The translations under genes were made by a program, and so were the position numbers. 64,000 bases of DNA, taken from NCBI GenBank assembly GCA_029261065.1, contig JAJDCB010000024.1, positions 12,129-76,128 on the forward strand, given 5' to 3'. Shown piece by piece: positions 1 through 36,769 of the stretch. The DNA comes from Candidatus Omnitrophota bacterium. GTDB lineage: Bacteria > Omnitrophota > Gorgyraeia > Zapsychrales > Zapsychraceae. How positions within the stretch are numbered: position 1 is the first letter of the stretch; the number at the start of each line of letters is the position of its first letter. The notes under the pieces were generated by a model, which was given only the letters and a program-made list of their open reading frames with translations, was not told the DNA's origin and did no database searches.

Positions 1-1032
1 GTAACTTGCAAAGTAAGTTGGGTATTCTGTTTTGATTCTTTCAAAACTTGTACTATGACCTAAAGCCTCTTGGTATTCTTTGAGGAGCAACATACGTGCT
101 GCTACAAATGTGTAATTAGGTTCTTTTTCAATAAAGGATTTTGTAGCCATAATGTTGGAATCAACCATCTGAGTTTCGGAGATCCCATTGTAATAATTTT
201 TTAAAGATTCTTCTAAGATGTTGTTAACGGATACATCGCTGATGCCTTGGCAGCATGTCTCAATTTGAAATCGAATGTCTTCTAAATTAAGAGATTTATC
301 CTCTCCTGTTTTAGTTTTGTATTTTAGCTTTTTGGTCCACTCAAAAGAATTGTCGGACAATAAATTTTCTGTATTTTTACGACGAGATTGGGCTCGTTGT
401 TCACGGTAAATGATGTAACGCCGCGTTTCATCGTGATGTCCAGATTTCATCAAGTTCTTCTCGACTAAATCTTGAATCTCTTCAATATGAATACATTTGC
501 CATTAGGCCAAAGTGTCTCGATTTCTGTAACAACGCTACTAGACACCTCTTTGGCTCTATCGAGCAATCTTTGAGACAGTATCTCATTATTGCTAGCGCG
601 GAAGACTTTGGCGACAGCGTATGTGATTTTTTCAGGTTTAAATGAGACTACTTTACCATCACGTTTGGTAATGGAATATAGATCAAATAAGGCGCGGCGT
701 GCAGCATGTTGTTTACGGTAGTTTGCATATAATTCGGCAGCTTCTTTAAAACCATTTTCAAATAATTGTCGAATAACTTCATCTTGGATTTCCTCGACAG
801 TGATATGATCTTTGTTTTGGATGCGTTCTGTCAGAACAGAAAAAACACATTCATAGACTTTTTCCACATGACGTGATGCCTCAATGGAGAGTTCGACTTC
901 CCGCGGGAGTTGGTTGAAATCTTTAAACGCATTACCGATCGCAACTTTAATACGGTGTTCGTTGTACGATACGATTTGACCGTTGCGTTTTTTGACTTTG
1001 ATGTCTAAGCGGGTTGTTGATTCATGAGACAT
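1..1032 (-). CDS. nrdA: Ribonucleoside-diphosphate reductase alpha subunit (class I NrdA), N-terminal part only; the gene continues beyond the window start
   Basis: Own translation of the minus strand from ATG at 1032 (AGGAGG SD about 9 nt upstream). It gives MSHESTTRLDIKVKKRNGQIVSYNEHRIKVAIGNAF..., i.e. at least two or three ATP-cone repeats (KRNG/KRDG + AI/AV motifs) followed by an RNR N-terminal domain. Absent from the ORF track because it is truncated by the window edge. Confidence 0.7.
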   Translation of the reverse strand, partial: MSHESTTRLDIKVKKRNGQIVSYNEHRIKVAIGNAFKDFNQLPREVELSIEASRHVEKVYECVFSVLTERIQNKDHITVEEIQDEVIRQLFENGFKEAAELYANYRKQHAARRALFDLYSITKRDGKVVSFKPEKITYAVAKVFRASNNEILSQRLLDRAKEVSSSVVTEIETLWPNGKCIHIEEIQDLVEKNLMKSGHHDETRRYIIYREQRAQSRRKNTENLLSDNSFEWTKKLKYKTKTGEDKSLNLEDIRFQIETCCQGISDVSVNNILEESLKNYYNGISETQMVDSNIMATKSFIEKEPNYTFVAARMLLLKEYQEALGHSTSFERIKTEYPTYFASY

Positions 1033-1364: not shown

Positions 1365-1985
1365 TTATTGAGCGCTACTATAGCGTTTGGCAACAGCATC
1401 CCAATTAACTACATTCCAAAATGCGGCCACATAATCTGGACGACGATTTTGATAATTTAAATAATAGGCATGTTCCCAAACATCAATCCCAAGGATAGGT
1501 GTTCCTTTACAATCGACGACATCCATAGCAGGATTATCTTGATTTGCAGTAGAGCAGACACACAACTTTCCAGCAGATACACACAACCAAGCCCAACCAC
1601 TTCCAAAACGAGTAGCTGCGGCATTCGCGAACTTTTCTTTAAAACTATCAAAACTACCAAATTCTTTATCTATAGCATCAGCTAAATCACCGGAAGGAGC
1701 TCCCCCTCCATTGGGACCAATAACATCCCAAAATAACGAATGATTATAATGCCCACCTCCATTATTTCTAACGGGTCCTTGAATTTCTTGAGGAAGGCCT
1801 GATATGTTAGAAATTAATTCTTCGATACTTTTAGAGCCTAAATCATCTTTGCCTTCAATAGCAGCATTAAGTTTGCTTACATAAGCGGCATGATGTTTGC
1901 CATAATGGATCTCCATCGTTTTGGCATCAATGTGTGGTTCTAATGCGGTAAAGGCGTAAGCCAAATCTGGTACTGAAAAAGCCAT
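1365..1985 (-). CDS. Fe/Mn-family superoxide dismutase
   Basis: 206 aa; N-terminal FxLPxLxYxxxALEPHI and HHxxYV motifs and a C-terminal DVWEHAYY motif are typical of Fe/Mn SOD. Confidence 0.9.
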
Positions 1986-2012
1986 TTGCTTTCTCCTTTT
2001 TTTGATAAATGA

Positions 2013-2516
2013 TTAAAGTTTTTTAACGGCTTCTAAGACTTCGTCGTAATTAGGTTCCGTTGTAATTTCGTTAACGACTTGTTTATATTGAACAGTTCCA
2101 TTTGCATCAACTACAAAAATAGCACGCGCCAATAAACGAACCCCATCGACAAGCAAACCATAGCTTTGAGCAAAGTTTCCATCGCGATGATCAGAAAGTG
2201 TGATCACTTTATCGCTTCCTGTTGCTCCACACCATCTTTTTTGAGCAAAAGGCAAATCCATGCTGACGGTTACGATAACAACATCACCAAGGTTTTCAGC
2301 TTCTTGATTAAATCGTTTTGTTTGTAAATCACAAATTGGTGTATCTAGGGATGGAACGACGGAGAGGATTACTTTTTTCCCCTTTAGTGACGATAGTTTA
2401 AATTCTGATAAATCGTTAGCGACAAGGACACAATCTGGAGCATCATCGCCTACATTTATTTCATTTCCTAAAAGCGTAACGGGATTGCCTTTCATTGTTA
2501 CAGCTGACATGTGCAT
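2013..2516 (-). CDS. tpx: Thiol peroxidase (atypical 2-Cys peroxiredoxin Tpx)
   Basis: 167 aa, colinear with E. coli Tpx (GNPVTL..., SxDxPxC peroxidatic Cys, LPFAQxRxCGA, VDEITTEPxY). Confidence 0.9.
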   Translation of the reverse strand: MHMSAVTMKGNPVTLLGNEINVGDDAPDCVLVANDLSEFKLSSLKGKKVILSVVPSLDTPICDLQTKRFNQEAENLGDVVIVTVSMDLPFAQKRWCGATGSDKVITLSDHRDGNFAQSYGLLVDGVRLLARAIFVVDANGTVQYKQVVNEITTEPNYDEVLEAVKKL

Positions 2517-2540
2517 CTCCTTAAATTATTAATCGAGTAA

Positions 2541-3203
2541 TTATTCTTCTAAAAAGAGTTTGTAACTCATAGCCCCTAAGACGCTACCAATAATAGGGCC
2601 GACCCAATAAATCCAAATATTTTGAAGACCTCCACCTAGCAGTGCAGGGCCTAAATGACGGGCGGGATTCATGGCAGCCCCAGAAACAGGTCCGCCAATT
2701 AAAATATCTAATGTTACAGCTAATCCAATAAATAAAGCCCCCACTTGCGGCGCTCTTTTATCAACAGCTGTTCCATAAATGACAAAAACAAGAATGAAGG
2801 TTAAAAATATTTCCATGATTAAACCCATGTTTGCCGATATGCCAGTTCCTAAGGCAGGTGTTCCCATACCAACGGCCATTAACACGTCATTGGGCATACA
2901 TAGTTTGATGGCAACGGCTGCGGCAATACCACCTAAACACTGTGCGATGATATAACCAATGGTGTTAACAGCATCAATTTTTTTTGCAACAAATAAACCA
3001 ATACTAACGGCCGGATTTAAATGCCCACCACTGATAGCTGCAGTGGCTGATGCCATAACGGCAATGGTTAAACCATGAGCTAACGCGATACCAACTAAGC
3101 CGGATGCGCCTCCTGTGATATGATCAGAGGCAATTGCGCCAACACCAACAAAGATGAGTGCAAATGTTCCAATAAATTCTGCTATAAGTGCTTTTTGATT
3201 CAT
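2541..3203 (-). CDS. Aquaporin / MIP-family channel (AqpZ-like)
   Basis: 220 aa polytopic protein with two NPA boxes (HLNPAVS and MNPARHLGP). Confidence 0.9.
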   Translation of the reverse strand: MNQKALIAEFIGTFALIFVGVGAIASDHITGGASGLVGIALAHGLTIAVMASATAAISGGHLNPAVSIGLFVAKKIDAVNTIGYIIAQCLGGIAAAVAIKLCMPNDVLMAVGMGTPALGTGISANMGLIMEIFLTFILVFVIYGTAVDKRAPQVGALFIGLAVTLDILIGGPVSGAAMNPARHLGPALLGGGLQNIWIYWVGPIIGSVLGAMSYKLFLEE

Positions 3204-3406
3204 GAAGTCTCCTAAAATTGAGGATTTCTAATCTGTAGATCCTTTCGAAGTGTTATATATATTACTTCAATTATAATATTTGTCAATAAAAAGGTAGTCC
3301 TTAAAGACTAAAGAAAACAATAGTGTTAATTGTTAGTTAAAAAATGTATGTTATAATAATTCATAATAATTATTTTTAATAATATTCAATTCCTCGAGGA
3401 GAAATT

Positions 3407-28342: not shown

Positions 28343-29770
28343 CTAACGCAAATTAACAGTTTGACCATCCGCAATACTTCCAACAACAAAAGGACCAAAG
28401 TTTAATCTTGCGGATTGGCCGTCTGCTGTGACATCAATGCTAATATCAAAACTCGTGCCATTAGCTGTTCCGGCAGGTATATCTAGATCCATATCTGAAG
28501 CGTTATCGGTTTGTGTGGTTCCTCCTGGTGGGGCATTGCTAAGAGTTGCATCTGTATTATGCGTAAAACTCCAGCCATTGGATACCTGCGCATTGCTATA
28601 GCTTATACCCGTGGAGGTGACTGTTCCTAAATTTACTAAAAGAAAATCGATCTCAAAACCATCCCCTGCTTGTACGAAACCATCACCATTGACATCCAGA
28701 CAACCAGAACAATTCACCCCTGGAAAACGTGTGGCGAGTTGAATATTAGTTAAGTTGCCTAAAACATTTTTACTATCTGAACTTTTCTCAACAACAATAT
28801 TAAAATTTCTTTCAACACGATCCAATAAGAGATCTTTTAAATCAATTTTTGGATAAGCTGTTTTTGAAAATTTGATCTCTTCGAGAATATCAGCAGGTTT
28901 CAAACTATTAATAGCAAATTTAAATCGCGCATCAACGCGATAATTCGTTTCTGCTAATTCATTATTAAAGGCTTGAAGGTTGATTGTAAATATATCTTTG
29001 GCTGATATTTCGGCTCGATGTGTCCAAGTTCTTAAATCCTCTGAATTTTTAAAATAATATCGTGTAAACCCTTCATATAATTTCAACCATGGTGCGTAAG
29101 GAACCCTCCCCCCAAGCTCAAGATCGAAACCATCAGCAGCCTCTTCATAGAAATTATTAAAAAACGTTTTTTTAACTAACTTTCTTCCAGAGTGGGCATT
29201 ATAAAGATTAAGGCGTCCTTCAATATTGTCACTTAACACCTCAAATCCAAGGCCTGTACGATAATGTATATTTAGGGATTGATAGTCAAAAAATCCATTA
29301 ATACCAAGGATCCATTCTTCATCCATGACAAGTCGTCGATAGCCAAGACCAACACTTCCCTTAAACTCACCATCGCCCTCACTAGAAACACGATCATGTG
29401 TAAATACGGTATGCCTTTTGTCAGTTGACTGATATATCGGCAGGACGGTTTCTATATAGTATTGCGGATGAGGGTTCACGGTATCATCATAGATAAGACC
29501 AAAATCGACATGCTTGAGAATTAAATCCAACCACTCTTCAGGATCGTCTGGTCTATATTTTTGTGTTGTATCCTCTTCATCGACATAGATCGGCTCTAAT
29601 TCTAAATATAACTGCTTGGCTTCATATTTTTCTATTTCATCAAGCTCATTGTTTATGATGTTATGACGTCGTTTTTGATATCTTTGATTGAATTCCGCTG
29701 AAGAGAAGGAATATTCGAAGAGAAATATACTAAAGATGATAATAATAGCGCAGTTTAATTTAGTTTGCAT
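28343..29770 (-). CDS. Inverse autotransporter-like outer-membrane protein (intimin/invasin-type beta-barrel with short C-terminal Ig-like passenger)
   Basis: 475 aa; signal peptide. Central region LGINGFFDYQSLNIHYRTGLGFEVL...RLNLYNAHSG...GFDLELGGRVPYAPWLKLYEGFTRYYF resembles the intimin/invasin beta-domain. Gly/Thr/Asp-rich C-terminus. Confidence 0.5.
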   Translation of the reverse strand: MQTKLNCAIIIIFSIFLFEYSFSSAEFNQRYQKRRHNIINNELDEIEKYEAKQLYLELEPIYVDEEDTTQKYRPDDPEEWLDLILKHVDFGLIYDDTVNPHPQYYIETVLPIYQSTDKRHTVFTHDRVSSEGDGEFKGSVGLGYRRLVMDEEWILGINGFFDYQSLNIHYRTGLGFEVLSDNIEGRLNLYNAHSGRKLVKKTFFNNFYEEAADGFDLELGGRVPYAPWLKLYEGFTRYYFKNSEDLRTWTHRAEISAKDIFTINLQAFNNELAETNYRVDARFKFAINSLKPADILEEIKFSKTAYPKIDLKDLLLDRVERNFNIVVEKSSDSKNVLGNLTNIQLATRFPGVNCSGCLDVNGDGFVQAGDGFEIDFLLVNLGTVTSTGISYSNAQVSNGWSFTHNTDATLSNAPPGGTTQTDNASDMDLDIPAGTANGTSFDISIDVTADGQSARLNFGPFVVGSIADGQTVNLR

Positions 29771-29863: not shown

Positions 29864-30991
29864 TTATCCTTTTGATATCGAGTTTTTTGCCTTCTCTCGG
29901 CCATAAGAAGTCAACATCAACTTATCACCCTGCTTTTTGATTAAACCTTCTTGAATGCTTTGGGCAATAACTTCTGAAGTATATTGTTTGGACCAGGACA
30001 TATGATCCTCCATATGACCAGTGATAAGTTCGGTGGCTTCAGCATGGGACCACTCGGCTTGTAATAAATGGACAGAGAGCGTTGATGCGCCAAAATCCCA
30101 ACGTGTCCATTTTTTTACAATGAATTTGGCTAATAAGCCATTTTCAGGAGCAAAGATGAGAATGATGAAAAATATAACACCAGAAACAGTTGCCATAGAA
30201 CCAGCAATGTTTGCATCAAATATTTGTGCTGTAAAGTAACCTCCGATGGCAGAAATAACTCCTAAGCCTGCACTAATAAAAAGCATGTGTGAAAGGCGGT
30301 TCGTTAAAAGATAGGCTGATGAGGGTGGTACGATCATTAAAGCAACAACAAGAATGGAGCCTACGGATTCAAAGGCACCAACAGCCGTAATGCTAACTAA
30401 CGTCATTAATCCATAATGAATGACAGCAGGAAATAAACCAAGCGATGCTGCTAAGCCAACATCAAAAGTAGCAATCTTTAATTCTTTGTAGAAGAGTGAA
30501 ATAAAAATTATGTTAAGGGCCAATATTCCAGCCATAATCCACATACTTTGTGGGCCAATATCAACGCCTCCAACAATAAGTCGGTTAAACGGGGTGAATG
30601 CTATTTCACCAAATAAAACACAATCCGCATCAATATGGACGGTGTTCGCAAATTGATTAATCAGAATGACACCAATGGAAAACAATAAGGGAAACACAAT
30701 TCCAATCGCTGCATCCTTTTTTAGTTTACGTGTTTTTATAATAAGTTCTGTGAGTGTTACGGTTAACAATCCTGTTATGGTCGCGCCTACAATGAGTAAA
30801 GGTGAAGATAGGTTTTTTGTTACAAAAAAAGCAAGTACAATACCTAACAAAATGGCATGGCTAATGGCATCGCTCATTAATGCAACGCGCCTGAGCACAA
30901 GAAACACGCCAGGCAACGCGCAGGCGACTGCCGTTAAACTTGCTAAAATCATGATTTCAACTTGTGGACTGATCATATATTTTATCCTCAA
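29864..30991 (-). CDS. Metal (Mn/Zn/Fe) ABC transporter permease, ABC-3 family, with ~90-aa C-terminal cytoplasmic winged-helix-like extension (YtgD-like position)
   Basis: 375 aa; about 8 TM segments typical of ZnuB/MntD/TroD. Hydrophilic tail with ...GLIKKQGDKLMLTSYGREKA. Confidence 0.8.
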   Translation of the reverse strand: MRIKYMISPQVEIMILASLTAVACALPGVFLVLRRVALMSDAISHAILLGIVLAFFVTKNLSSPLLIVGATITGLLTVTLTELIIKTRKLKKDAAIGIVFPLLFSIGVILINQFANTVHIDADCVLFGEIAFTPFNRLIVGGVDIGPQSMWIMAGILALNIIFISLFYKELKIATFDVGLAASLGLFPAVIHYGLMTLVSITAVGAFESVGSILVVALMIVPPSSAYLLTNRLSHMLFISAGLGVISAIGGYFTAQIFDANIAGSMATVSGVIFFIILIFAPENGLLAKFIVKKWTRWDFGASTLSVHLLQAEWSHAEATELITGHMEDHMSWSKQYTSEVIAQSIQEGLIKKQGDKLMLTSYGREKAKNSISKG

Positions 30992-32102
30992 ATTCTCGTG
31001 TAAGTCTTTTGGCCATACGTAATCCTTCAGGTGTTAAAGCCCAACGCCTATCTGCAAATTGCTGAGCCATCCCCTTTTTTGAAAGTTCCATCATTGTTTT
31101 ATTGATGGCCCCCCTTCCTATCGCATCAAGTGCTGCAATATCGTGCGGATGAAAAGGGTCTGTATTAATTTCAGAAAATAACATTAAATTCTTTAACATT
31201 GATGTGAGACGGATATTTTTTCGATGTTTCTGCATGCGGACATAATCCGATAAGATACCTCTGTTGGGTGCTAGAAATAATGAAAACATAACAATAAGGC
31301 TAACAAAAACTACAATAGTTGGTCCTGTTGGTAAATTAGGAATAAGGCTGCTGGTGAGAGCGCCTGCCATTCCTGAAAGAGCTCCAAATGTTGCCGATAA
31401 TAACACCATGATACTTAATTTGTCTGTCCATTGGCGGGCGGCAGCAGCGGGAGCCACAAGCATAGCACTCATTAAGACAACACCAACCGTTTGTAATCCA
31501 ATCACAATGGTAACAACAATAAGCGTTGTCAGAATAATGTCTAACCAATTGATCCGATAGCCAATACTTTGAGCAAAATCTTTATCAAAAACAATAATTT
31601 TAAATTCTTTCCATAATAAAAAAAGCACGACAAAAACTATCGCGCTTAGAATCATCATCGTGTGTAAATCTTCTTTTAATAGGGTTGCGGCATTGCCAAA
31701 TAAAAATTTATCTAACCCCGCCTTAGAAGCAGAAGGTAGCCGTTGAATCATGGTCAGTAACATCAAACCAAATCCAAAAAATACAGACAGAATGATGCCT
31801 AGTGCAGCATCTTTTTTGATGCGTGAGTGATGAGTGATGAGCATGACTAAAAGTGTACCAATCCAACCAGCAATTCCTGCTCCAATGAGTAATATTAAAG
31901 GGGCTTTGCTTTGCGTTATGATAAAGGCTAAACATACGCCTGGTAATGTGGCGTGGCTTATCGCATCACCTAGTAAACTTTGTTTACGTAATACGGCAAA
32001 GGCGCCTAAGCTTCCAGCGGAGATTCCAATTGTGAGGGATCCTAATAAAACAACTTGTAAGGTGTAATCACTAAATATTTGATGTATGAAGGAAAAATTC
32101 AC
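30957..32102 (-). CDS. Metal ABC transporter permease, ABC-3 family, fused to a C-terminal DtxR-like winged-helix domain (YtgC-YtgR-like architecture)
   Basis: 381 aa; ABC-3 permease core followed by ...DAIGRGAINKTMMELSKKGMAQQFADRRWALTPEGLRMAKRLTREFE, which resembles the DtxR/MntR N-terminal DNA-binding domain. Confidence 0.75.
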   Translation of the reverse strand: MNFSFIHQIFSDYTLQVVLLGSLTIGISAGSLGAFAVLRKQSLLGDAISHATLPGVCLAFIITQSKAPLILLIGAGIAGWIGTLLVMLITHHSRIKKDAALGIILSVFFGFGLMLLTMIQRLPSASKAGLDKFLFGNAATLLKEDLHTMMILSAIVFVVLFLLWKEFKIIVFDKDFAQSIGYRINWLDIILTTLIVVTIVIGLQTVGVVLMSAMLVAPAAAARQWTDKLSIMVLLSATFGALSGMAGALTSSLIPNLPTGPTIVVFVSLIVMFSLFLAPNRGILSDYVRMQKHRKNIRLTSMLKNLMLFSEINTDPFHPHDIAALDAIGRGAINKTMMELSKKGMAQQFADRRWALTPEGLRMAKRLTREFEDKIYDQSTS

Positions 32103-32875
32103 TTTTTAACATCCTCTTCATCTTTGCCAGCTAAAAACGCTGCTCGTCCTCCATAAGCTCCTCGTAGATTCTCCGGGGTAAGGACAGTTGTGACGGAACC
32201 TAAGGCAATACGTCTAATATTCAGTAACATGACCCAATCAAAATATTCTTTAAGGGTTTGTAAATCGTGATGGACACATATAACAGTTTTGTTATTTTGT
32301 TTAAGTTCTCGTAATAATTCGATAATGCTTTTCTCCGTTGTGGCATCTACACCAGCAAACGGTTCATCCATTAAATATATGGGGGCATCTTGCATAAAAG
32401 CGCGCGCTATAAAGACACGTTGTTGTTGACCGCCGGATAATTGACTTATTTGCCGATTAACGAAATCAGCCATGCCGACTTTCTCTAAACATTGAAAAGC
32501 TAATCTTTTTTCTTCTTTTCCAGGACGCTTAAACCAACCTAACTGACCGTAGCCCCCCATCATGACAACATCAAGAACGTTTGTTGGGAAATCCCAATCA
32601 ACGGTGCCTCGTTGAGGCACATAACCAATAAGCCGAGATTGAGGTTTATATTCTTTACCCATTACTAAAACTTGACCAGCAGCAGGTTTAATTAATCCTA
32701 AGATGGTTTTAATGAGTGTTGATTTCCCTGCACCATTTGGTCCAACGATGGCTAATAATTTTCCTTGAGGCGCCTGAAAATCAACATCCCAGAGAACCGG
32801 TTTCTCACGGTAGGCCACGGTTAAGTCATGAACATCAATGGCAGATAAAGTTTTTTGTTTTGTTTTAGCATTCAT
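32099..32875 (-). CDS. Metal ABC transporter ATP-binding protein (ZnuC/MntB/TroB family)
   Basis: 258 aa; Walker A GPNGAGKST, ABC signature LSGGQQQR, Walker B LMDEP. Confidence 0.9.
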   Translation of the reverse strand: MNAKTKQKTLSAIDVHDLTVAYREKPVLWDVDFQAPQGKLLAIVGPNGAGKSTLIKTILGLIKPAAGQVLVMGKEYKPQSRLIGYVPQRGTVDWDFPTNVLDVVMMGGYGQLGWFKRPGKEEKRLAFQCLEKVGMADFVNRQISQLSGGQQQRVFIARAFMQDAPIYLMDEPFAGVDATTEKSIIELLRELKQNNKTVICVHHDLQTLKEYFDWVMLLNIRRIALGSVTTVLTPENLRGAYGGRAAFLAGKDEEDVKK

Positions 32876-32895
32876 TTATTCATCTCCAATAACGC

Positions 32896-33810
32896 TTACT
32901 TTAAGGAGTCTACGATAGTATCAATATTATGCGTGACCATTCCTAAATAAGTACCTTCAACTGTTCCTCTATCACCTAAGGCATCAGAAAATAATTCGCC
33001 TCCAATTTTTACATCCCAATTGCGTGAACGAACAGCTTCAACAACGGCTTTGATGTTTCTTTCAGGTACAGAGCTTTCAACAAATAAGGCTTTTATTTTT
33101 CTTTTCGTAATAAAATCAGCCAACCTCATGACATCGGCTGCACCTGCTTGTGATTCTGTACTTATGCCTTGTAAGCCAACAACTTCAAATCCATATTTTC
33201 TACCAAAATAACGAAAAGCATCGTGAGCTGTGACTAAAACGCGCTGATTTTCTTCCAACTCCTGACTACGTTTGGAAATATAATCATGTGTTTTATCAAT
33301 CTCTTTTAAATAATCGTTTGCTCTTTTTTCATATTCATCCGAATGATCGGCATCATATTCTATAAGCGAATCACGTATTTTCTCCACACAAAGTTTCCAT
33401 AAATGAAGATCAAACCAAATATGAGGATCATAATGACCTTTATAATCCACACTATCTAGTAAAAAATTTACAGGAACCTTATCAGATACAGCAACGACCA
33501 TTAGCTTTCTATGCATTTTTTGAAAGATGACGCTCATTTTAGCTTCTAAATTTAACCCATTATAAAAAATGATTTGAGCATTTGCTAATTTTCTAACATC
33601 ACTTTCACTGGCCTTATATAAATGAGGATCAACACCTGGTCCCATCAAACCATGAACTAGCACATGATCCCCCCCAATAATTCTGACAATGTCCGTTATT
33701 TGACCGGTGGTTGAAACAATTTTTATCTTCTTTGGCTGTGCCTCTACACTCGCTAAGGGTAAGACCATAAAAAAGAAAAGTGATAGGCTTAATATTAATG
33801 TTTTTTTCAT
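32896..33810 (-). CDS. Metal ABC transporter periplasmic substrate-binding protein (TroA/ZnuA/MntC cluster-9 family)
   Basis: 304 aa; signal peptide and conserved His/Asp metal-ligand positions of the TroA-like fold. First gene of the A-B-C-D set. Confidence 0.85.
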   Translation of the reverse strand: MKKTLILSLSLFFFMVLPLASVEAQPKKIKIVSTTGQITDIVRIIGGDHVLVHGLMGPGVDPHLYKASESDVRKLANAQIIFYNGLNLEAKMSVIFQKMHRKLMVVAVSDKVPVNFLLDSVDYKGHYDPHIWFDLHLWKLCVEKIRDSLIEYDADHSDEYEKRANDYLKEIDKTHDYISKRSQELEENQRVLVTAHDAFRYFGRKYGFEVVGLQGISTESQAGAADVMRLADFITKRKIKALFVESSVPERNIKAVVEAVRSRNWDVKIGGELFSDALGDRGTVEGTYLGMVTHNIDTIVDSLK

Positions 33811-33834
33811 AAATAACCTCTAATTTAAATTAAG

Positions 33835-34287
33835 TTAGTTTTTACATTGTTTACAGATTCCGTAAAAATGCATTTCGTGTCCCAAAATCAGAAACCCTTT
33901 CTTTTTAAGAAGATCCTCATAAATTTTGTGTTCTCCTAAATCAGGAAATTCTAGGTTCTCATGACATCGGATACATCGGGCGTGATGATGGAGTTTTTCA
34001 TCATAAATGTGTTCGTAATGATGGTGTTTATCGCCAAAAGCTGTCTCTCGAATGATCCCTGCTTCAAGTAATTCTTTAAGGCAGCGATAAATGGTAGCGC
34101 GTGAGATATTACGTTTATTGTTTTTACATTGTTTAACAAGTTCCTCAGGGGCAAAATGACCGTGCGCATGCATCACTTCATCGAAGATGATTTTTCGACC
34201 ATCTGTATAACGCAAACGATTATTGAGAAGATATTTCTCAAATCGTTTTTCTTCTTTTTGAATTTTATTTTGTGTGCGCTTACTCAT
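33835..34287 (-). CDS. Fur-family transcriptional regulator (Fur/Zur-like)
   Basis: 150 aa; winged-helix N-domain, HHHxH-type metal site and two CxxC pairs (CIRCH...CKQCKN). Lies immediately upstream of the metal ABC operon with a 24-bp gap. Confidence 0.85.
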   Translation of the reverse strand: MSKRTQNKIQKEEKRFEKYLLNNRLRYTDGRKIIFDEVMHAHGHFAPEELVKQCKNNKRNISRATIYRCLKELLEAGIIRETAFGDKHHHYEHIYDEKLHHHARCIRCHENLEFPDLGEHKIYEDLLKKKGFLILGHEMHFYGICKQCKN

Positions 34288-34392
34288 ATGAGACAGTGTA
34301 TCATATATATAATAAAAAACAAGAGCTAATTTTTTCTTAGCCCTTGTTTTTTAATAAATTTACAATGTTCTAAATACTTGAAATAAAAGGAA

Positions 34393-34947
34393 TTATGAGG
34401 CATTCCACTTAATCGAACATCCCATAGATGGCATTTGTTTCCCCTCAACAGCAAGTCCAGCAGCATGATTATTTAAAGCTTCCTTAAGCTCCTCACGGGT
34501 GACTTTTGACTCGTCCTTCCAATTATCATCAATCCGGCCATGATAAACCAATTCTTTATCTTTATTGAAGAGATAAATGTCTGGCGTGCATTGGGCGCGA
34601 AAACTTTTTGCCACCTCTTGCGTTTCATCAACTAAATATGGAAAATCAATCCCATGTTCCTTGATTATAAGTTTCATGTTTTCTGGAGAGTCTTCAGGAA
34701 AATCTGGATGAATGTTAGGATTAATCGCAATTGAATTAATCCTCATGCCCTTGGCATATTGAGCCAAACGGACCAAACGCGACCAAACTGCAATGGCATA
34801 AGGACAATGATTACAGGTAAATGCGATCAATAGGCCTCTATCTCCGAATTGCTCAGATCCCTTTATTATTTGACCATCTGGATTTTTAAGTTCAAAGTCT
34901 GTCATCTTTGTTCCTAAAGGAACAAGAATAGATTCTAATAATGCCAT
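34393..34947 (-). CDS. Thioredoxin-fold thiol:disulfide oxidoreductase (AhpC/TSA-redoxin family, CxxC)
   Basis: 184 aa; CNHCPYA active-site motif in a redoxin fold; no signal peptide. Confidence 0.65.
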   Translation of the reverse strand: MALLESILVPLGTKMTDFELKNPDGQIIKGSEQFGDRGLLIAFTCNHCPYAIAVWSRLVRLAQYAKGMRINSIAINPNIHPDFPEDSPENMKLIIKEHGIDFPYLVDETQEVAKSFRAQCTPDIYLFNKDKELVYHGRIDDNWKDESKVTREELKEALNNHAAGLAVEGKQMPSMGCSIKWNAS

Positions 34948-35623: not shown

Positions 35624-36769
35624 TTATTCTGTGTTAAGTCGTTGCCCTTTTTGATCATATTCTTTTGTTGCGACTAGTTTACCATTTTTATAAATCCATT
35701 CAACTCTAATATCTCCATTTTCATAAAACTCTTTTGTGGGGCCATCTTGAACGTCGTCTTTGTAATGATAAATGGCCTTACATTCCCCACTTTCTAAATA
35801 TTCCGTACTCGCCCCATTTAGCTTATCATTGCAATAATTCTTTTCATAATGCAGCTTTCCATCATCATAATATTCTTTGGTTAAACCATTTAATTCATTA
35901 TTTTTATACTGCCATTCCATTTTTAGAGTTCCATTTTCTAAAAATTCTTTAGATAGCCCATTTAATTGATCAGTATCATAGGTGCGTTGGTAGTGTAGTT
36001 GACTATTTAGAAAATATTCATTTGATAGTCCGCTAAGTTGGTTATTTTTGTAGTTCCAGCTAAACAAAAGATTATTAGATTGATCAAATTCGCGGGCCTC
36101 GCCTTCAAGGGTATCATTTTGATAGGGCCATTCGATAATTTTTTTCTCCTCTATTCTAAATTCTTTGGAGGATCCATTTAAAAATCCCTTTTCATAGTTC
36201 CATTGATATATTAAATTATTGTTATCATCATATTCTTCTGTAACGCCATGTTGTTCCATATTCAGATAATGTTTTTTAAAAATAACGGTTCCATTTTCTC
36301 TAAATTCTGTATGCATCCCATCTTTAAGCCTATCATTCTCAAAATGCCATTGATGAATAAGGTTTCCTTGTTTATCAAATTCTTGAGATAAGCCTTCAAG
36401 CTTTTCGTTTACATAATGACGTTCATAATGTAGCCCACCTTCTTCATAAAATTCTTTATGCACGCCATCTATGATCCTCCCTTTTTGAAAAGACCATTCC
36501 ATATGGAGATGTCCGCTTGGGTAGAAATCTTTGTGGGTGCCATCTGTAAGATTACCGTCTTTATAGAGCCTTTCTGAGCGTAGAGCTCCGTCTTCGTAAT
36601 ATGCTTTAAGAAGTCCTTCCATGTAATCATCTTTATATGGTTTTTCTTCTCTTATTTGGCCGCTTTTATAGAATTCCGTATAAACACCTTCTTTTTTACC
36701 ATAAAGTTCGTGCCACTGGGCTTTAAGCTCTCCAGAATCATAAAAAATCTTTTTTAAGGCGTGTTTCAT
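35624..36769 (-). CDS. MORN-repeat protein (YwqK-like)
   Basis: 381 aa composed almost entirely of ~23-aa repeats, e.g. G.HKEFYENG.L..E..Y.N.KLDG, repeated more than 12 times. No signal peptide. Confidence 0.8.
   Translation of the reverse strand: MKHALKKIFYDSGELKAQWHELYGKKEGVYTEFYKSGQIREEKPYKDDYMEGLLKAYYEDGALRSERLYKDGNLTDGTHKDFYPSGHLHMEWSFQKGRIIDGVHKEFYEEGGLHYERHYVNEKLEGLSQEFDKQGNLIHQWHFENDRLKDGMHTEFRENGTVIFKKHYLNMEQHGVTEEYDDNNNLIYQWNYEKGFLNGSSKEFRIEEKKIIEWPYQNDTLEGEAREFDQSNNLLFSWNYKNNQLSGLSNEYFLNSQLHYQRTYDTDQLNGLSKEFLENGTLKMEWQYKNNELNGLTKEYYDDGKLHYEKNYCNDKLNGASTEYLESGECKAIYHYKDDVQDGPTKEFYENGDIRVEWIYKNGKLVATKEYDQKGQRLNTE

Follow-up and report, generated by a model that had tools for sequence, protein, structure and literature searches.

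How is a metal importer kept in check when each of its two permeases ends in an extra domain that looks like a DNA-binding module, and when a separate regulator is encoded in front of it? The question is raised by five closely spaced genes on the minus strand (positions 29864-34287) of a 64,000-nucleotide stretch of contig JAJDCB010000024.1 of a Candidatus Omnitrophota bacterium, hereafter called the window, in which all positions are counted unless another locus is named. The genes run in the order Fur-family regulator, binding protein, ATPase, permease 1 and permease 2; as they are separated by gaps of 20-24 nt or overlap, we read them as a single operon. We find that the system is a Tro-type ATP-binding cassette (ABC) importer in which each permease ends in a minimal winged-helix tail; the regulator that accompanies it belongs to the Fur family, not to the DtxR family. 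The joint explanation that we prefer, namely a Tro-type importer with its own Fur-family repressor acting at a 17-bp site and with tails that regulate transport, appears on balance probable.

The importer and its two tailed permeases

An earlier reading, made from the letters alone (the sequence-only reading), had proposed that a Fur-family gene precedes a Mn/Zn/Fe ABC importer whose permeases both carry C-terminal winged-helix extensions. Its coordinates, its A-B-C-D gene order and the peptide strings it quoted from the tails (...RRWALTPEGLRMAKRLTREFE for permease 1 and ...KLMLTSYGREKA... for permease 2) were all correct. The genes and the tails are as follows.

33835-34287, minus strand: Fur-family metalloregulator gene, 150 amino acids (PF01475, E 1.4e-21)
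32896-33810, minus strand: gene of the periplasmic metal-binding protein, TroA orthologue (PF01297, E 2e-77; ZnuA fold)
32099-32875, minus strand: gene of the ABC ATPase, TroB-like (library domain match)
30957-32102, minus strand: gene of permease 1, TroC-like, 381 amino acids (ABC-3 domain, PF00950, residues 12-277, E 7e-71)
29864-30976, minus strand: gene of permease 2, TroD-like, 370 amino acids from the ATG (ABC-3 domain, PF00950, E 1e-45)
30960-31268, minus strand: tail of permease 1 (tail 1), residues 279-381, with a basic linker helix, a DPFHPHD loop and a winged helix
29867-30148, minus strand: tail of permease 2 (tail 2), residues 277-370, with a basic linker helix, a His/Glu cluster and a winged helix

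The binding protein matched the structure of Treponema pallidum TroA (1TOA) with E 1.3e-87, the second-best family reaching 5e-46; because this match stands far above those to other families, the importer was assigned to the Tro type. By its sequence the locus encodes an importer of the TroABCD type (cluster A-I), with Mn, Fe and Zn as the predicted substrates. Permease 2, which is identical to a public protein (P0121), was scanned as a 375-residue open reading frame (ORF) from a TTG at 30991, so that its ABC-3 domain at residues 14-280 corresponds to residues 9-275 from the ATG. The operon holds no ORF of the DtxR family, and a C-terminal Cys/His sensing motif of the kind known from ZnuC was looked for in the ATPase sequence and not found.

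Past the ABC-3 domain, which ends at about residues 277-280 in the scanned ORFs, each permease continues for about 95-105 amino acids; the solved homologue PsaC aligned to permease 1 only over residues 5-284 (E 6e-36). For each permease we sampled the 120 best homologues, nearly all of them 365-395 amino acids long and, where the source was named, from Candidatus Omnitrophota, Margulisbacteria, Longimicrobium and unclassified metagenome-assembled genomes (MAGs). Among the closest homologues listed, tail 1 was aligned in 119 of 119 and tail 2 in 118 of 119, with a mean identity of 54% in the winged-helix part as against 67-70% in the membrane domain. The tails are not of low complexity and are aligned across homologues, which rules out the simple low-complexity linkers that the sequence-only reading had named as the case against its proposal.

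AlphaFold2 models computed with family alignments reached a predicted local distance difference test (pLDDT) score of 83.5 for tail 1 and 87.2 for tail 2. Both models share one layout, in which a helix of about 30 residues leads away from the membrane, a loop joins it to two short helices, and a beta-hairpin and a last helix complete the domain; this helix-helix-helix-hairpin-helix topology, with a helix-turn-helix and a beta-hairpin wing, is that of a winged helix. Foldseek searches of the PDB returned winged-helix proteins exclusively. MarR-family regulators were matched end to end, and the N-terminal domains of DtxR, IdeR and MntR were superposed with a root-mean-square deviation of 1.7-3.2 Å over 67-80 residues (probability 0.98-1.0, with modest E-values of 2e-3 to 1e-1), tail 2 fitting IdeR/DtxR at 1.7-2.3 Å over 67-69 residues. 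Using hhalign, we compared the tails with a DtxR N-domain profile built from two DtxR genes of related loci and three textbook sequences; it aligned from helix 2 to helix 4 with tail 1 at 95% probability (E 3e-8) and with tail 2 at 76% (E 2e-5), and the winged-helix profile of the operon's own Fur-family protein, used as a control, gave 41% and 0.6%, respectively. Aligned with hhalign, the two tails also prove to be homologues (probability 95%, E 4e-8), and H42 of tail 1 stands opposite E40 of tail 2. Pfam and PDB searches with the tail sequences gave only weak generic winged-helix matches, most commonly HVO_A0261_N, MarR_2 and GntR for tail 1 and HemN_C and wHTH-PRTase for tail 2. Taken together, models and profiles support the view that the tails are paralogous winged-helix domains and distantly related to the DNA-binding domain of DtxR, much as had been read from their helix-turn-wing segments.

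When 1.84 billion cluster representatives were searched by profile, only 272 clusters matched; among the 150 listed, the full-length proteins are permeases of 354-415 amino acids that end in the tail. The tail domain has no model in Pfam or NCBIfam. Judged by these matches, the tails constitute a domain family without annotation that is typical of Tro-type permeases. About 15 representatives of 67-81 amino acids looked like stand-alone tail domains and were treated as artefacts, the single case inspected being a frameshifted permease gene. Separately, a protein of 1614 amino acids (P0350) gave seven weak matches to the tail-1 profile in an apparent winged-helix-like repeat array ('...Y/FSITEKGFEE...') that bears no relation to transporters.

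We retrieved 13 related genome loci with the tail-1 pattern, and in all 13 the tail-1 permease is followed by the tail-2 permease. Omnitrophota-like MAGs keep the full order of redoxin, fur, binding protein, ATPase, permease 1 and permease 2. A Marinamargulisbacteria locus and an unrelated 3.1-Mb contig (L013, L014/15) have instead an adjoining full-length DtxR gene; the neighbouring DtxR genes comprise Fe_dep_repress, Fe_dep_repr_C and FeoA domains, and the palindromes beside them differ (TTAGGAGGaCCTCCTTA in L013, at 3323-3339 of that locus, and a perfect 20-bp TTTTTAGACATGTCTAAAAA in L014, at 2294-2313). In one more lineage (L016/17) the tailed pair has no adjacent regulator. Since tailed pairs persist beside Fur, beside DtxR or beside no regulator according to lineage, the tails seem to be independent of the local regulator, and the layered metal-responsive control that the sequence-only reading had drawn from the second extended permease and the Fur-like gene is not borne out. 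Cultured bacteria carry examples on plasmids: Paracoccus aestuarii has a tail on both permeases, and in Deinococcus deserti permease 1 is short (307 amino acids) and permease 2 tailed (363 amino acids). In sequence comparison a tail on the TroD-type subunit is the rule, and the tail on the TroC-type subunit is the less usual trait of this clade. The second extended permease is not exceptional and carries what is normal for TroD-type subunits (TroD of 366/367 amino acids versus TroC of 304/298). In L013 the DtxR gene is separated from that of the binding protein by an unannotated ORF of 366 amino acids.

The Fur-family regulator and its putative operator

The regulator belongs clearly to the Fur family (PF01475, 77.3 bits against a cutoff of 23.1). 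It has two CxxC pairs and a His-rich stretch, and C105, C108, C145, C148, H42, H44, H88, H93 and H100-102 are invariant in seven orthologues. Among solved relatives, C. jejuni Fur (3e-24) and B. subtilis PerR (2e-20) both rank above Zur. The features in front of the gene are these.

34288-34304, minus strand: 17-nt near-palindrome ATGATACACTGTCTCAT, putative Fur operator, abutting the fur ATG at 34287
34303-34302 (TG) and 34300-34295 (TACACT), minus strand: extended -10 box, TGaTACACT, inside the palindrome
34317-34322, minus strand: putative -35 box TTGTTT, 16 nt 5' of the -10 box, read by eye

The palindrome next to the fur start codon had been pointed out by the sequence-only reading, and it is both present and conserved. 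Seven of its eight arm pairs match; as the AT-rich window holds 45 palindromes of equal quality and shuffled sequences about 35, symmetry by itself proves nothing and the weight rests on conservation. The exact 15-17-mer TGATACACTRTCTCA stands before the fur orthologue in six of six fur-bearing genome loci, in which the rest of the spacer is divergent. An exact-match scan of metagenome contigs yielded 120 loci, and in 33 of them a fur orthologue starts at most 120 nt downstream; the 33 encoded proteins are 41-67% identical in the aligned segment, the two lowest being cut by contig ends. Fur is the only large gene family downstream of the 17-mer among the 120 loci. Matches inside long ORFs (66 of the 120) were taken as chance. 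Apart from Fur, just one kind of gene recurs downstream, a small set for outer-membrane-like proteins in three loci; in L088, L099 and L121 the 17-mer precedes a signal-peptide protein, outer-membrane-like by look, that neighbours fur or a fur-tro cluster, and these proteins may be further members of the regulon. A second operator-like site within the window (571-587, TTGAGACAGTATCTCAT, three mismatches) was set aside as probably a chance match, since it lies inside a coding frame with ATP-cone-like sequence; that frame is possibly a ribonucleotide reductase running past the window start.

In at least ten loci the motif and fur stand ahead of an NRAMP-like ORF (about 450 amino acids), with no tro genes in the available sequence (among them L022, L026, L051, L055, L056, L057, L072 and L074). 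The one NRAMP-like ORF that was scanned, in L072, matched PF01566 with E 6e-133. By gene order and domain match, fur-NRAMP is a second operon type of this Fur homologue, and since the motif and fur occur together there, the operator belongs to the Fur homologue independently of the tailed permeases. As regulator and operator also front NRAMP (MntH) genes, the metal sensed is most likely Mn2+ (or Fe2+), which would make the protein Mur-like. Five of these loci (L022, L026, L055, L057 and L072) have an ORF of 300-460 amino acids 3' of the NRAMP-like ORF; the L072 copy, which was scanned, belongs to the OprB family of porins. A gene that is LacI-family-like by its N-terminal sequence lies upstream in seven of the eight NRAMP-type loci, all but L051.

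The simplest reading of this arrangement is that the operon is autoregulated by the Fur homologue. The metal-loaded protein would bind the 17-bp inverted repeat, which overlaps both the extended -10 box and the start of transcription, and would thereby block RNA polymerase. A consensus promoter scanner made no call for the TTGTTT of the window; orthologous loci have TTGACT or TTGATT as -35 box, 16-17 nt 5' of the -10. The fur ATG often lies exactly 7 nt past the -10 box and operator, and a Shine-Dalgarno sequence is absent (34285-34322 in the window; also L022, L043, L057, L072, L074 and others), and an ATG placed in this way suggests a leaderless fur mRNA. Some orthologous loci have instead a short leader with AGGAG.

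Directly upstream lie two further features, and the redoxin neighbour is kept in most loci of the Omnitrophota type (53-81% identity).

34313-34353, minus strand: strong terminator-like hairpin at the end of the upstream AhpC/TSA-redoxin gene
34393-34947, minus strand: AhpC/TSA-redoxin gene, directly 5' of fur (Pfam match)

On the other side of the operon, 93 nt 3' of permease 2, a gene on the minus strand (28343-29770) encodes a protein of 475 amino acids with an inverse-autotransporter beta-domain (PF11924, E 4e-21). It was dropped as a member of the system, since its place next to the operon is not conserved among the 13 related genome loci. Elsewhere in the window, ORFs at 1365-3203 on the minus strand resemble, on inspection of their sequence, an Fe/Mn superoxide dismutase, a Tpx-like thiol peroxidase and an MIP/aquaporin channel; they would form an oxidative-stress set that could relate to Mn homeostasis. 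A protein of 381 amino acids at 35624-36769, minus strand, consists of repeated Y-x-D/N-G-x-L-x-G/E units and is MORN/YwqK-like by appearance.

Possible roles of the tails

Which function could two such domains have? We favour a permease-borne sensor or regulator of transport, followed by a structural or docking role and then by a YtgR-like or membrane-tethered repressor; the first is a tentative choice, the leading one among several and short of probable. Its basis is the pattern of conservation. Among 153 representatives of tail 1 at no more than 50% identity, H35 is found in 89%, H40 in 70% and H42 in 94%, along with W76 in 97% and G82 in 100%. The conserved His/Glu cluster of tail 2 comprises H27, E32, E40, H49 and W52 (tail numbering), of which E32, E40 and H49 are invariant and H27 is present in at least 90%. 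In both tails the potential metal ligands cluster at the junction of helix 1 and helix 2. The tails are placed in the cytoplasm because the linker helix has a net charge of +3 to +4, PsaC tolerates a C-terminal green fluorescent protein (PMC8346216) and YtgR is cytoplasmic (PMC5599777). Each tail is tethered to the last transmembrane helix through its basic helix of about 30 residues, and its His/Asp/Glu cluster at the junction of the first two helices would bind imported metal. The metal-bound tails would then feed back on transport, most likely as a cytoplasmic regulatory module and not as the repressor of the operon. In its specific form, the proposal is that the paired tails are a built-in cytoplasmic metal sensor, in which bound Mn, Fe or Zn shuts the transporter off (trans-inhibition); we put this forward as a possibility that is more doubtful than not.

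A structural or interaction role without sensing, such as docking of the ATPase, setting the stoichiometry or order of the subunits, or recruiting a metallochaperone or acceptor, is in our estimate rather unlikely, although winged helices often serve as protein-protein modules and the match lists include the dimerisation domains of O-methyltransferases, eS10/eS19, MUS81 and HemN_C. It would suit the residues at the top of the conservation scale, which lie mainly in the core or the hairpin (L25, L62, W76, T79 and G82 in tail 1), and the loss of the putative tail 2 ligands in Deinococcus and Paracoccus. However, histidine is strongly kept at three loop positions of tail 1 among the representatives at no more than 50% identity, packing alone poorly explains the invariant E32, E40 and H49 of tail 2 in the main clade, and numerous ABC-3 transporters (PsaBC, ZnuBC) function tail-free.

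The sequence-only reading had likened the tails to the Chlamydia fusion of permease and repressor, YtgC-YtgR. In its fullest form this alternative makes DNA-binding repressors of one tail or of both; they would be cleaved off or act as a membrane-tethered heterodimer of permease 1 and permease 2, and would add a second layer to Fur control at the operator. The fold is nearest to bona fide DNA-binding domains, DNA-bound DtxR/IdeR included (Foldseek), and the profiles resemble the DtxR N-domain; YtgC is cleaved, fusions of permease and repressor are reported from 11 phyla (PMC5599777), the TroD tail is called a DNA-binding domain in a preprint (10.64898/2026.05.05.717303), and a pair of tails per complex could furnish the dimer for a palindrome. 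Against this, a Pfam scan of the window tails gave no match to Fe_dep_repress or Fe_dep_repr_C, Fe_dep_repress (PF01325) was touched by only two of 31 tail-1 sequences at a noise level of E 0.12, and the metal-binding/dimerisation domain PF02742 was never matched across the tail family. Each tail is a winged helix of about 70 amino acids behind the linker helix, which leaves insufficient room for such a domain, so that on these comparisons a YtgC-YtgR-type repressor fusion is not supported. The exposed positions of the recognition helix in tail 1 are variable; the operator accompanies Fur in loci without tailed permeases; where a DtxR gene adjoins, other palindromes replace the operator, yet the tails stay; and systems with a single tail, such as that of Deinococcus and, by protein length, that of Treponema, would provide only one winged helix per complex. 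Net charge was uninformative on DNA binding, as genuine DtxR N-domains span -4 to +6. We consider this alternative improbable.

Several points weigh against the reading of a Fur-repressed importer with sensing tails. Chief among them, tail 2 of Deinococcus deserti and of Paracoccus aestuarii is without most of the His/Glu cluster, so metal sensing is not universal to the domain. In the window itself, position 35 of tail 1 is Asn. The placement of the tails and the binding of metal by them are proposals from the analysis, and the modelled fold is that of DNA-binding domains, so that, with the charges uninformative, the tails may bind DNA. As to the regulator, all NCBIfam equivalogs stayed far below their cutoffs, the best being PerR with 64.6 bits against 180, and no named subfamily (Fur, Mur, PerR, Zur) was assigned. 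The extended -10 box and a possibly leaderless start, in place of repressor binding, account for part of the conservation of the 17-mer.

ABC metal importers of this class count as virulence factors and as targets for drugs, and few accounts exist of how their activity is limited after synthesis. The tail domain with its invariant histidines is a testable candidate for built-in control of Mn/Fe uptake. If tail sensing is true, it would be post-translational trans-inhibition carried by the membrane subunits, through a fold otherwise known for DNA binding, and Tro-type importers, that of the syphilis spirochaete among them, would share the kind of self-regulation described for ZnuBC. Permeases of this class can be arranged in at least three grades: those without a winged helix, those with the tail, be it on the TroD-type subunit only or on both subunits, and those with the complete YtgR repressor. 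The Fur homologue and ATGATACACTRTCTCAT over the extended -10 box provide a regulator-operator pair for little-studied phyla, namely Omnitrophota and relatives, which can be used for annotating Mn-uptake regulons in metagenomes.

Comparison with known systems

Nothing at the locus conflicts with established biology, and its parts can be set beside four known systems. With Treponema TroABCD it shares TroA orthology, the gene order and the length of the TroD-like permease (370 versus 366/367 amino acids). TroC of Treponema measures 298/304 and TroD 367/366 amino acids (PMC2628430), whereas permease 1 of the window is extended to 381. A C-terminal winged helix is predicted in T. pallidum TroD (10.64898/2026.05.05.717303), and it is from protein length and this preprint that homology of the TroD tail to tail 2 is suggested. 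Treponema encodes the DtxR-like TroR last, while in the window the Fur-family gene comes first, and the putative operator is unrelated to the Treponema tro dyad.

In Chlamydia, as in the window, an ABC-3 permease has a C-terminal cytoplasmic winged helix of the DtxR type, and NCBI naming of the homologues puts Omnitrophota and Chlamydia in the same PVC group. YtgR is a complete DtxR-like repressor with metal ligands that is cleaved free and binds its own promoter (PMC5599777); by contrast, the tails of the window consist of the winged helix only, sit on both permeases and stand beside a separate regulator.

The model for the mechanism that we favour, a sensor built into the importer, is E. coli ZnuBC, a related importer whose ZnuC ATPase has a zinc-sensing C-terminal domain; bound zinc locks the transporter shut, a control described only in 2025 (PMC12236471). 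Both cases involve a built-in cytoplasmic extension with conserved metal ligands, predicted as such in the window. The ZnuC domain, however, lies on the ATPase, carries CxxxHxCC and is not a winged helix, whereas the domains of the window lie on the permeases and offer candidate His/Asp/Glu ligands.

On the side of gene regulation the nearest parallel is Mur, which controls sitABCD and mntH in rhizobia. There too, a Fur-family protein and an inverted repeat of the 7-1-7 type over promoters serve both ABC and NRAMP uptake genes. To our knowledge, the half-site ATGAKAYA is unlike the published Fur, Mur, Zur and PerR boxes. In further distinction from Mur, the regulator gene of the window stands first in the operon that it would itself regulate, and its transcript may be leaderless.

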